Positions 4,225-9,607 of a stretch of 64,000 bases of DNA are shown in pieces (position 1 is the first letter of the stretch; every line of letters begins with the position of its first letter). The stretch covers positions 1-64,000 of the forward strand of contig JAVKOQ020000030.1 of NCBI GenBank assembly GCA_031835245.2, in the 5' to 3' direction. The notes beneath the pieces were generated by a model that was not told the origin of the DNA, searched no databases, and worked only from the letters and a program-made list of their open reading frames with translations. The translations under genes were made by a program, and so were the position numbers. This stretch comes from Balamuthia mandrillaris. Lineage: Eukaryota.

Positions 4225-4478
4225 ATGAATCTCCTACTACTACTAGATGTAAAAAGGGAGAAAGAAAGAAAGAAAGAAACGACAAGAAAGAAACGACAAG
4301 AAACAATCAAGAAAGGAAAGGAAAGGAAAAACAAAAACAAGTCTCCAAATAGTTCTCATTCTTTATTATTATCTATATCTTCATTCATCCATCAGACTAG
4401 ACTTACTAACTTCGTGTTTCTTTTGTTTCTAATATTTGTTGTTTGTGTTTGTGTTTGTGTCTACAATTTACTTGTTTT

Positions 4479-4512
<34 letters not shown>

Positions 4513-4931
4513 ACAGAAGATAATATATCTATTCCTGCTGTCTTTGACAAACCATCACTACTAAACAACAACAACAACAACAACAAAGAGGCAGCAATAG
4601 CAACAACAGTAACAGCAATAGAAGAGGATGATGAAGTAACGATTGTCTCAATATCATCACCCTCATCCTCATCAACAACATCTTTCAATCATCACTTTGC
4701 TCCCTATCAGGCTCTCAACACTCGGTCATTCGTTCGCAAGCAGTTTTTGGATCATTATTTGTTAAAAACACCACCACCAGCAACTGTTGTTGCTTCTGCT
4801 CCTGTTATTGTTGTTGATAATCCTGCAGAGCTTTTTTCACCTCCTCCGTTTTCTGCATCACCCTTTTCATCCACTACCACTACCATCACCGCCACTTCAT
4901 CATTTACTCAATCACAACCACAACAACAACG

Positions 4932-4976
<45 letters not shown>

Positions 4977-6375
4977 GCAACAACAACAACAATCTTTAGA
5001 AAGGATGACCTCTTCTTCTTCTTGTTCTTCTTCTTCTTTTTCTTCTTCTTCTTCTTCTGCTTGTTCTTCTTCTTCTTCTTCTGCTTGTTCCCCTTCTTCT
5101 CCTCCTCCTCCTTCTTCTTTTTCTTCTCTCCCTTTTTCTCCTCCTCCTTCTTCTTCTTCTTCTTCTTCTTCTTCTTTTTCTTCTTCTTCTTCAAATTCAG
5201 AGTCCTTTGTCTTTGAGAACAATGATGGTGATGTTATGGATAGCAACGGTGATAGTAATTTATCAGTATCATCATCATCTTCATTAAGAGGAAGAAGAGG
5301 AGAAGTAGAAACAGAGGAAGATGCAAGAAGCAAAACAACAACCCCATCAACATTGATTGATTTGTTGTTGTTGACTGAAGACGAAAAAGAAGATGAAGAA
5401 GAACACAAAGAAGAAAAACAAGGAAAAAAGAGAAAAATAGAGAAACAACAAAATAGAGCTAGAACAAATGATGATAATGATGACGACGATACTACACATG
5501 GCAGCAGTAGTAGTAATGGTGGTGGTGGTGATGGTGGAGGAAGACGTCTTTCTCGTGCTATCACATTGATGAACCGTTTGACAGAAGAGCGGTGGACAGA
5601 GTTGACGGCAGTGACGAGTCGATGGAGCCCTTCTACCCAACGTAAACATGCCTGGACTTTGGCCATCTGGGAAGCACATTGTGGGCATCATAAATGTTTG
5701 CCAGCTCTTCCTTTGAATCTCCAACGTCATAACGTAGGAGCCTTTGTTCAATGGTTGATTTTGGATGTGGGTTATGCCTTGAGCTCTGTGCGCGATGTCA
5801 TGATTGCCAGTCTTTATCGTTTGCATGATGAAAGTATCCAACAACAGCTTGACTCCCTTTCTGCATCCTCCTCCTTCTCCTCTTCTTCTTCCTCCTCCTC
5901 CTCCTCCTCCTCCTCTGTTTCCTCCATGATCTCTTCAACTTCAGCATCATCATCATGTACCACTTCTCTCCCACCTTCTCCTTTATCCAGAACCCTTCTT
6001 GGTGATGGTGTCACTCGAGCAGCAACAACAGGAGCGACAAGATGCACTACAGCACTGACAACAACCTCAGACCATGCTTACTTGTTGTTGCTAAAAAACC
6101 AAATGGATGCCATCAAAGATCAAGTCAAACAGGCCATTCGACATTGCAAAAGAGCCAAACCCTCCTGTTCTAGCAAACAATTGTGCAAAGACGCATGTTT
6201 GTTAGATGATGTCTTACATATTATCGCATCCACTCCAGATGGACTGGTGAGCAAAGCTGCTGAAGCCAGTTGTTGGTTACACAGTGTTTGTACTGGTGCC
6301 AGAGCCATTACAGCTGCAAACATTCGTTTGGGTGATATTGTGGCATTTCGACCTAAACTTTCATCCTCCTCTTTT

Positions 6376-6411
<36 letters not shown>

Positions 6412-7549
6412 AATGACAACATCTGCTGCCATCACCAAGAGGATGCATTTTCTGCTCCTCCTCTTTATTTCCTTTCGTTGCGCCAACAAGTCACCAAAGG
6501 AATACCAAATCATTGGAATCATGTCGTTACATTTGAAGGTTATTTAACACCACCACCACCACTACCATCATCATCATCGCGAGGATCATCTTCTTCACCA
6601 TCACCATCACCATCATCACCACTTAGGACCGCTGCTGCTACGACCTCTGCTGCTGTTACCACCCCTGCTGCCACCACATCAACAACATCAACACCAAGCA
6701 TTTGTCTTGGAGATTTTATTTACTGGTTAAACAAGCATCTGTTATGCAAGCATGGTTTGGATTTGCGCGAGTTTCACAACTGGCGCTTAACAGATACACA
6801 AAAACAAACATCATTATGGGGATGGTCACGCGATACTTTAAATGCCAAGTTGCAAGATCGGGCTGTTCGGGCTGGTTATCCTGAAGGATTGTTTTCCTTT
6901 CACTCCTTGCGTGCTGGCTTCCTTTGCACTGCCTTGATTTTGGAGGGACTGCAGGAAGGTCACAGTCAGAACAATGTACTGGATACTACTGCCCTTATCG
7001 CAGGTTGGGTACCTCGTGGTAGATCCCAGCAAGTCTACGTCAAGGATACATTAAAACGTGCTATTGTGGCCAATCGCTTGGTCAGCAATGTTACCACCAC
7101 TCATCCTCATTCTTCTTCTTCTTCTTCTTCTTCTTCATCATCTTCATCCTCTGTTGCAACTACCACTGCTGATTATCATCCCCCTCGACATTGCGGTTCG
7201 TTACTGCTCATCTGATTTTTGTTTTTTCTTTTGTTTTTTCTTTGGCTGGGCTGGCTGCCTGACCAGCGTCAATAAATCACCACCACCACCACCACCACCT
7301 CCACTATCACTTGATGGACTGACTTGCTCTCTTTTTGGTTCTTTTTATTCTCACTCCCTTGTATACATACAGTTATTGCTCCAGAGCTAGTTACCAAAGA
7401 AGCATTTCACAATCTATCCCCAGATGCTTTGCAACAATCCAACTGGTCTGCAGATACCAACTATCAGAGTTTTATTCATGCTGTTCGCCAACGGTTTGTT
7501 TGTGTGTTGTTTGTTTGTTTTGTTTGCATAGTATCCACCACCATCACCA

Positions 7550-7617
<68 letters not shown>

Positions 7618-8775
7618 TTATCTATTTATCTATCCAGTCAGTTTTTAGCTTGTTTGTTTGCTTGCTTGCATTCAAAAATGCACCCTTAGACCTAGCGCTC
7701 AGCTAGAACGCACAGGTTTATTGTGACAGCAGCAACATTCATAGTCTAAACAATAATTGTTATAATTGGTCTTAGTTCATTTGTTCTTCTTTTAACATTC
7801 ACTCACACTTTGTTTTTTGTCTCTTTTCCCTTTTTCTTTCTTTTCCTCTTTCTTTCTCTCACTTTCTCTTTCTTTCTTCTTCTTCTTTTACACTGCTTCT
7901 TTAGGTGGTTCATGAAACGAACAGATTTGCCAACCAAAGATCAACAAATACGATTTTATCGCTCCTTGTGACTTGAATGTTGTACCGCTTGGGTAGAAAA
8001 TCATCCAGATGAGTTTGACAAGGATGTGCTAGCTGAAGCTGCAGCCACCTATGAGGCCAAAAACAAATCTCCTCTTCGTTGGCCCAATATTCATCGCCAG
8101 CTGTGCCGTCAACACATCTCTGGCATTCTACAAAGCTTTTTCAGTGGCTTGAATGAGCTGGTGGATGAGTTTGTAGCTCCTGTACTTCCCAAGTTGGTCA
8201 ACGGATCACCCATTCACAAAGCATTCCTCACCTCTCGTCAAGAGCAATCATCCTCCTCCCTTGCTTCTCTCGATGCTGATGATGATGACAAGAGTCCTGA
8301 CTCAAAAAAACAAACACCACGACGACAACGACTTCGCAGAGCGCTTCAGCGACAACAATTGTTATCCAATCAACTCAAATATCGGAAGAATGGCCATCGG
8401 CAACGGATCGCTTGGCAGGCACCAGAAATCCGTAGACTTGTCACTTGGCGCTTGCGTGATGGATGGTCTTGGTTGGAGATTGCCAAACACTTGCCTACCC
8501 AACGTCGAACCAACAATGATTGCTATGATAAATGGCGCAATCTCCTCACAGAATTCTCCAACAATCTGGACGCTTTGAAGGCCAAATACTTGGTGGCCCA
8601 CGATGAGGACTTTGACAAATCGGATGATGATGATGATAATGACAACACTTCCTCCCCATCATCATCTCCTACTTTTACTACCACTACAGTTATATCCATC
8701 TTGGATGAAGAGGAAGAAGAAACAAACGAGAATGATGATGATGATGATAAAGATATTATGATTATATCCAGTTAG
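4225..8775 (+). pseudogene. Tyrosine recombinase (DIRS/Crypton-like YR) fused to a C-terminal telobox-like Myb/SANT domain; one in-frame TGA
   Basis: Catalytic motifs: TGAR (R at 6301), VTKG, FHSLRAG (6901), AGW (7006), QVY (7036). Introns 7196-7372 (phase 1) and 7494-7904 (phase 2) join the YR in frame to an exon encoding W..E...L......GWSWLEIAKHLPTQRRTNNDCYDKWRNL (~8410-8545). TGA at 7969-7971. True start uncertain. Confidence 0.8.
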
Positions 8776-9607
8776 ATTATATGTGTATTTCTATACTAAA
8801 ATTGAAAAAATTGCTACTTTGACCCACTTTATCCGTTAGACTTATAGACTTAGAGTTTTATAGAATGGACCATGGGGAGTTGAATGCCGTAGGTTCTGAG
8901 TACCCGCCCCTAACCCTAACCAGTCAAGAGCAATCATCCTCCTCCCTTGCTTCTCTCGATGATGATGATGATGACAAGAGTCCTGACTCAAAAAAACAAA
9001 CACCACGACGACAACGAGTTCGCAGAGCGCTTCAGCGACAACAATTGTTATCCAATCGACTCAAATATCGGAAGAATGGCCATCGGCAACGGATCGCTTG
9101 GTAGGCATCAGAAATCCGTAGACTTGTCACTTGGCGCTTGCGTGATGGATGGTCTTGGTTGGAGATTGCCAAACACTTGCCTACCCAACGTCGAACCAAC
9201 AATGATTGCTATGATAAATGGCGCAATCTCCTCACAGAATTCTCCAACAATCTGGATGCTTTGAAGGCCAAATATTTGGTGGCCCATGATGAGGACTTTG
9301 ACAAATCGGATGATGATGATGATAATGACAACACTTCCTCCCCATCATCATCTCCTACTTTTACTACCACTACAGTTATATCCATCTTGGATGAAGAGGA
9401 AGAGACAGAGGAGAATGATGATGATGATGATGATGATGATATTATGATTATATCTTGTTAGATTATATAGGTATTTCTATACGAAAATTGAAAAAATTGC
9501 TACTTTGACCCACTTTATCCGTTAGACTTATAGACTTAGAGTTTTATAGAATGGACCATGGGGAGTTGAATGCCGTAGGTTCTGAGTACCCGCCCCTAAT
9601 CCTAACC
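8237..9607 (+). repeat. Tandem duplication (~685 bp x2) of the Myb-encoding 3' end and terminus of the YR-Myb element
   Basis: 8237-8921 is nearly identical to 8923-9607. Both copies end in GAGTACCCGCCCCTAA(C/T)CCTAACC. Copy 2 has a CAG>TAG stop at 9102-9104. Confidence 0.95.
8907..8921 (+). repeat. Telomere-like motif CCCCTAACCCTAACC (junction 1)
   Basis: Read directly; about 2.5 units of the TTAGGG complement at the end of duplication copy 1. Confidence 0.9.

Follow-up and report, generated by a model that had tools for sequence, protein, structure and literature searches.

What kind of element is the gene near the start of contig JAVKOQ020000030.1 of Balamuthia mandrillaris (GenBank assembly GCA_031835245.2), in which a tyrosine recombinase (YR) appears to be spliced to a Myb domain and which is followed by a short run of telomere-like repeat? 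An original prediction, made from the letters of the first 64,000 nucleotides of the contig (the window, to which all coordinates below refer), held that it is a YR element without a reverse transcriptase (RT) whose recombinase carries its own telobox-type reader and integrates at telomeric or telomere-like repeats. Our analysis makes it very likely that this is a mobile, RT-less YR element with repeat-defined ends, and probable that the fuller description holds, namely a multi-copy RT-less element with a Cre-like YR and a TRF-like Myb domain that ends in a telomere-repeat run and likely moves by site-specific recombination. An RT-less telobox YR element ending in telomere repeat is supported because homologs carry both domains in a single open reading frame (ORF), because the repeat boundary in Balamuthia is sharp, and because complete relatives are bounded by direct runs that match the host type. 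The element in the window itself is a broken copy of this multi-copy element.

The complete YR catalytic set claimed in the original prediction was located at R6301, K6496, H6901, R6910, W7006 and Y7036, in agreement with the R-K-H-x-x-R-(H/W)-Y signature, and in an alignment of 46 sequences none of the six residues varies. Neither Pfam nor PHROGs gives a match to the window's YR exon; its assignment as a YR rests on homologs and structure. An AF2 model of the exon (pLDDT 78) matches the fold of Cre (1kbu) with a VIA Z of 17.2 and an rmsd of 4.4 over 285 aligned positions, and Foldseek with the same model returns a YR in every row, yet at E values of 6e-3 or above; the full-length single-ORF homolog P0027 (model pLDDT 91) matches Cre at a Foldseek E of 6e-7. 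In the ESM Atlas the YR hits generic YR-like clusters only (0.92, 120-142 shared features), and the viral structures of BFVD hold no close match to the family (identities at most 15%).

Searching 1.84 billion representatives with HMMER brought up 321 sequences related to the YR part (E<=0.001); 150 of these were listed. Pfam was run on 78 homologs, the top-ranked and longer ones, leaving aside short ones and those after P0111; Myb is matched in 40 of them and Phage_integrase, weakly or moderately, in 5, while at E<=0.01 none of the 78 matches DUF3435, DUF3504, GCR1_C, NDC10_II or RT. The proteins P0007 and P0015 likewise gave no match to GCR1_C, NDC10_II or DUF3504. The family's own Myb profile finds the domain in 72 of the 146 listed homologs not named as Balamuthia, and in 63 of the 84 among these that are at least 480 aa long; because many of them, from Monocercomonoides and from metagenomes, carry YR and Myb within single ORFs, the fusion is independent of the splice model. 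Two of the 18 representatives looked up are Monocercomonoides exilis proteins, and judged from the homologs the fusion spans many eukaryotic lineages, including distant protists. None of 7,968 candidates was a longer fused form, a blank that is uninformative since P0016 (1,261 aa) is one, and none of 20 candidate stretches from viral contigs was confirmed as a family member. The only genome-contig locus, L035, a YR-Myb contig in a Bacteroidetes metagenome-assembled genome, was set aside as likely mis-binned eukaryote DNA; its best repeat match is 9 nt, a length attained by 20% of shuffles. Some members differ in domain content, with a chromodomain added after a weak Myb in P0087 and two Myb repeats in P0036, P0096, P0154 and P0163. 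Relationships were taken from a quick IQ-TREE tree restricted to family members, with 28 of its 61 inner branches open and the placement among known YRs outside its scope.

The window gene can be read against these homologs. The frame enclosing exon 1 is open over 4174-7215 (+), with homology setting in near 5536. Two in-frame GT-AG introns had been proposed to join the YR to the Myb; the frame is kept and intron 1 agrees with the NCBI gene models P0003 and P0004, while for the second junction these models offer an equal-scoring alternative, with a 26-nt micro-exon at 7690-7715 and the exon resuming at 7925. The two predicted versions score 488.3 and 487.4 bits against a non-Balamuthia profile, both are in frame, and under either YR and Myb are collinear with the single-ORF homologs. 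An acceptor 3 nt further on was discarded, there being no AG at that place. RNA run X20, of which ~3% was read, gave 5 partial reads on 7884-9960, none spanning a junction, and is uninformative on expression. At the C-terminal end the single Myb repeat was found as described, closing with RTNNDCYDKWRN; the stop codon lies at 8773-8775, and the end motif, said to follow by ~130 bp, is CCCTAACCCTAACC at 8908-8921, ~132 bp downstream.

The locus is not single-copy. In the 90% collection the YR exon has six matches, each a gene model from Balamuthia mandrillaris. They fall into at least three subfamilies, with identities of 89-91%, 46% and 44%; the 44% subfamily counts 17 cluster members. Three DNA contig sets (X1 and X4 among them) were aligned on window positions 7884-9960. 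Summed depth in X1 is 13,658-20,001 at 7884-8233 versus 39-352 beyond 9633; summed depth is not copy number, but its drop marks a repeat boundary. The same boundary is where other copies leave the motif for unrelated DNA: among 18 of 93 loose ends that were listed, five start at 8915, 8918, 8921 (two runs) and 8924 and run on into differing non-telomeric sequences. Two gene models of the 44% subfamily read through into VPAPNPNP or VLAPNPNP, which is the translated terminal motif of the window, and one of them proceeds into a host Rap1GAP gene; the end motif is thus conserved across subfamilies, and insertions are chromosome-internal. Telomere-repeat matches of at least 11 nt occur at just two places in the 64 kb, 8908 and 13399, and Balamuthia telomeres are reported to be TTAGGG (bioRxiv 10.1101/2025.02.25.640156).

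The TGA at 7969-7971 proved to be the only stop in the spliced frame, as noted originally, and the window copy is dead. It is private to this copy because the other contigs covering the site read TGG, position 7971 being G in 45 of 45 X1 contigs and in the single X4 contig. The original prediction missed a tandem repeat of 8237-8921 at 8923-9607; this truncated copy has an in-frame TAG at 9102-9104 and an imperfect CCCTAA motif at 9594-9607, depth falls past 9607, and it may have arisen by nested insertion or unequal recombination. In gene models P0002 and P0024 a subfamily-B gene has the 3' portion of a subfamily-A copy after it, a stacking like that at 8923-9607. The left end of the window copy lies outside the window or has been lost.

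Both ends are seen in relatives. A metagenome scan gave 34 related loci in 17 nucleotide clusters, and runs of at least two tandem telomere units occur in 19 of the loci and 7 of the clusters; L002, L008 and L009, with 10-11 nt matches only, are outside the 19. Runs were absent from 50 dinucleotide shuffles, and 11 permuted hexamers gave no dimer. In L011 the run is part of a perfect inverted duplication where the ORF ends, and it is doubtful as a terminus; with L011 set aside, 6 of 17 clusters remain. Fifteen loci, forming one cluster and one clade (100% support), have ORFs that are open only under NCBI table 6, the ciliate code, and carry (TTGGGG)2-7 runs, TTGGGG being the Tetrahymena-type repeat (PMC9498494). 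In five of these ciliate-code contigs a unit of 3.07-3.2 kb stands complete between two (TTGGGG)n runs, and units are arrayed head to tail, one of them (99.8% identity) with three different right neighbours. For standard-code hosts the runs are TTAGGG: L003 and L001 together give a unit of ~3.3 kb with a run of 3 units on one side and, on the other, a contig-terminal tract of 19 units; in L007, L026 and L012 a single run lies close to the gene, and the doubtful run of L011 also belongs here. Two relatives, L001 and L004, are near contig ends that carry long TTAGGG tracts, at distances of 1.2 kb and 7.7 kb, respectively. Telomere repeats of other hosts include TTTAGGG, TTTTGGGG and TTAGG.

Direct repeats at both ends with no terminal inverted repeats (TIRs) are found in L013-L016, L032 and L001/L003, the window copy showing the right end only. 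Run length varies, from 1-2 units in Balamuthia through 2-7 in the ciliate-code host to 14-19 where two contigs end. Each complete unit (3.1-3.2 kb) has a single YR-Myb ORF; seven other ORFs scanned from these units match no RT or DDE transposase, and there is no room for an RT. An inverted repeat unit lies 12-13 bp inside the run at 7 of 16 termini, the window included, against a background of 0.25%. We also noticed that TTAGGG and TTGGGG hosts alike have a CAAC..CG..AACCC-like motif immediately inward of the run (L002:2136, L003:286, L007:25 and 119, L013:3257, L032:6043). One further unit, L020:1-2740, shares the right end but has no YR match and carries an uncharacterised 386-aa ORF; it is possibly non-autonomous or cargo-bearing.

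We consider it reasonably probable that the Myb domain provides repeat recognition. With a profile of helices 2-3 built from 7 sequences, the best single-domain score is that of zebrafish Terfa (28.2 bits, aligned RTAVNLKDRWRT), and the TRF1 and TRF2 chains reach 24-27 bits whole-chain; per domain, in the printed alignments, Myb21 scores 19.4 and the c-Myb repeats 14.8 bits. The TRF-like form of the recognition helix is kept across distant branches and is altered in the TTGGGG lineage. Going by these scores, the base-reading helix of the family Myb is TRF-like, and the telobox case is mixed but favourable; binding of the domain to telomere repeat is predicted.

A route of movement by circle excision and integration can be proposed from YR chemistry together with the model for Cryptons (PMC3212892). 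If the two direct runs recombine with each other, a circle would be excised whose junction keeps one run. The circle would integrate at another run, which could belong to a telomere tract, be a short interstitial motif or mark where an existing copy ends; integration at copies already in place would account for the head-to-tail arrays. The Myb is predicted to read both the run and the inverted half site found 12-13 bp further into the element, which would place the catalytic domains between them. On a broader scale we lean, by a small margin of belief, toward an old, eukaryote-wide superfamily of single-gene DNA transposons with their own telomere-repeat reader, in which ends and helix track the host repeat from TTAGGG to TTGGGG.

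Several observations weigh against this account, and some of them are the ground on which other explanations stand. The whole-domain Myb profile prefers c-Myb R3 (41.6 bits) over TRF2 (32.3), the window Myb alone matches no TRF chain at E<=1 and scores best with c-Myb, and by the family Myb profile the TRF-like helix is lost in many, often distant, members. The telobox-type Myb of the original prediction has its support in the recognition helix, which scores closest to TRF proteins; the domain as a whole scores closest to c-Myb. The Myb could on these grounds be a generic DNA-binding or chromatin module, with repeat specificity in the YR core-binding and catalytic domains alone, an idea that also fits the chromodomain of one member and the targeting of repeats by TATE (PMC6681497) and CryptonV (PMC8869645), for which the available text of those papers mentions no Myb. 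We think this unlikely, given that the helix, RT-x-V-x-x-KD(R/K)WR, best matches TRF-type chains and that its retention across distant branches and its alteration in the TTGGGG lineage speak against a generic role. The flanks raise a different doubt: those seen in Balamuthia are unique, non-telomeric DNA after 1-2 repeat units, so that targets there would be short interstitial motifs and not chromosome-end arrays. Integration at telomeric or telomere-like repeats is favoured by the relatives lying between direct runs and disfavoured by the Balamuthia flanks and the shortness of the motif. The family might then be a genuine YR transposon that carries its telomere-like runs solely as terminal binding sites of its own, its target needing little or no telomere-like sequence and its Myb binding its own ends, as GCR1_C may in CryptonF; the internal inverted half site, which belongs to the element, and the insertions inside chromosomes adjoining host genes agree with this. 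Run length, however, varies between copies and direct runs stand at both ends, as if the target contributes units, and we judge this second explanation distinctly improbable.

Other points against touch the evidence from the ends and the arrays. Relative to the G strand, the window gene is oriented opposite to most relatives; the left end is absent from the window, and neither a circle nor an empty site came to light. No run of at least two units is found in 10 of the 17 clusters, where many contigs are short but L006 reaches 4.8 kb, and the half-site pattern, noticed post hoc, is absent from 9 of 16 termini. The TTGGGG host is one lineage, so the co-variation of the repeat rests on a single event, with the host telomere deduced from the genetic code, and assemblers may join repeats at shared ends, so that the neighbour order in arrays may be chimeric. 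Two more explanations were weighed. That the Balamuthia copies are cargo of a Terminon/Athena-type Penelope retroelement would suit the sense-strand CCCTAA end, the truncated tandem copy and the co-oriented multi-copy gene upstream, for Terminons end 3' in a reverse telomere repeat on the sense strand, keep introns and occur as head-to-tail copies truncated at the 5' end (PMC6431247). We regard it as very improbable: neither Rfam over 1-21000, whose 9 sub-threshold matches we put down to chance, nor a scan of the 3' tail for the core motif revealed a hammerhead; what the window shows of the unit contains no RT; in relatives the sense strand is the G strand and both ends bear runs; and the YR catalytic set is conserved throughout. 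Slimmer still is the chance that these are immobile host genes, a domesticated telomere or subtelomere family that segmental duplication has spread, a view to which the position of L001 and L004 near long TTAGGG tracts would lend support; a sharp boundary with many different flanks, the many broken or truncated copies, at least three subfamilies in one genome and compact self-contained units in arrays all speak against it.

Table 1. Positions of the YR-Myb gene, its parts, its right end and adjoining features in the 64 kb window.
Feature	Position	Strand	Basis or remark
YR-Myb gene exon 1, low-complexity N-terminal stretch then YR domains	4225..7195	+	ATG at 4225 putative
Cre-like core-binding and catalytic tyrosine recombinase, low-complexity inserts	5536..7104	+	Homologs, fold
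Intron 1, GT-AG, 177 nt	7196..7372	+	Predicted; NCBI models P0003 and P0004 share the junction
Linker exon, conserved FHN / NY motifs	7373..7493	+	Alignment to single-ORF homologs
Intron 2, GT-AG, 411 nt	7494..7904	+	Predicted; alternative with micro-exon
Last exon: helical domain, Myb, acidic tail	7905..8775	+	Premature TGA 7969-7971 inside; homologs have W there
Single Myb repeat, TRF-like recognition helix	8380..8559	+	Pfam Myb E 2e-4; family profile 58 bits
Element right end: inverted telomere-like half site 8890-8895, 12-bp spacer, CCCTAACCCTAACC 8908-8921	8890..8921	.	Loose ends 8915-8924
5'-truncated tandem copy of Myb part and right end	8923..9607	+	96% identical to 8237-8921
Upstream spliced low-complexity gene, multi-copy	1..3901	+	P0179 identical on 5 contigs; 6 cluster members and P0180

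The gene upstream of the YR-Myb gene is possibly a second ORF or cargo of the element; it has no informative Pfam or ESM Atlas match, and the NCBI labels 'VASt domain', 'Carbonic anhydrase' and 'Phosphodiest' attached to it are without Pfam support. Downstream, at 9799-12040 (-), a second spliced YR-like ORF can be made out by eye, with an H...Y near the C-terminal third and a chromodomain-like tail. Tandem repeats of ~150 bp at 12127-12810 precede it and CCTAACC motifs at 9601-9607 and 13399-13412 bracket it. It may be a second YR element using the CCTAACC motif; no informative match to it was obtained in Pfam, PHROGs or the PDB. Contig set X4 differs in sequence left of 9616. The 13399-13412 motif is the one further perfect telomere run of two units in the window; it is without the inverted half site and lies ~45 bp inside the apparent 3' long terminal repeat of a minus-strand Gypsy. 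There are two decayed Gypsy elements, at 13457-16900 (-) and 16985-19907 (+), with rve and chromodomain matches, and the first 20 kb of the window form a transposon nest that gives way to ordinary host genes.

Target-specific DNA transposons of eukaryotes are few, Pokey, Dada and CryptonV being the examples given in PMC8869645. Retroelements are documented to target telomere repeats, and a DNA element of the YR kind able to read the repeat would, if confirmed, add a mobility strategy. Such an element would also be a source of interstitial telomeric sequences and a means to remodel these and subtelomeres in protists, and it bears on whether telobox domains moved between mobile elements and host telomere proteins. 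The superfamily reading, if true, would supply a DNA-transposon counterpart of TRAS/SART/TATE and a natural telomere-aimed recombinase. With compact intact 3.2 kb units, both ends defined and two repeat types, the mechanism is testable by domain swaps, and the units could yield a recombinase with a modular DNA-reading domain.

How does the family compare with known systems? TRAS carries a Myb-like domain, and TRAS/SART, MoTeR and Athena/Terminon elements resemble the present family in landing in telomere repeats; they differ in that all are retroelements and none is a YR DNA element. Terminons moreover need a hammerhead and an RT (PMC6431247). Closer is TATE of Leishmania braziliensis, a YR element found in tandem clusters at a fixed position in the telomere hexamer, but a retrotransposon of three ORFs that encodes RT/RNase H and has split direct repeats (PMC6681497, in whose accessible text the word Myb is absent), whereas the units here are single-gene and RT-less. 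More generally, the RT and RNase H ORF that marks DIRS, Ngaro, VIPER and TATE has neither a match nor room in the complete units. Starship DUF3435/MYB hybrids share a mobile-element YR fused to or paired with MYB/SANT, so that a YR-Myb fusion as such is already reported, in another YR family (PMC12256816); Starships are giant fungal cargo elements with TIRs and a DUF3435 YR, a captain marker with no match in the 78 homologs or the window exon, and the accessible text of that paper does not contain 'telomer'. With TRF1, TRF2, Terfa and TRB the family shares a single Myb repeat, a basic N-terminal arm and the RT-x-V-x-x-KDRWR helix; it differs in helices 1-2, which are nearer c-Myb, in having no TRFH domain, and in that binding is predicted. 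We found no description in the literature of a YR-telobox element bounded by telomere repeats, though a Repbase entry could exist, and the accessible parts of PMC3537659, PMC9156397 and PMC6338049 hold nothing on such an element; the telomere-repeat-bounded YR-Myb family across distant protists is real and apparently undescribed.

The nearest relatives in kind are the Cryptons (Kojima & Jurka 2011, PMC3212892), which are likewise mobilised by a YR alone, lack RT and TIRs, end on either side in short direct repeats and have a proposed circular intermediate; in the accessible text of that paper 'Myb' does not occur. CryptonV is known to target microsatellites (PMC8869645), and CryptonS and CryptonV have no Pfam marker and are not in our family tree. 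The present family falls within the broad Crypton definition and lacks the domain markers of CryptonF, CryptonA and Starships. Like CryptonF it has a C-terminal DNA-binding domain, here a Myb in place of GCR1_C, and it differs from described Cryptons in that its direct repeats are telomere-repeat runs and it occurs in an amoeba, an oxymonad and a ciliate-code organism.

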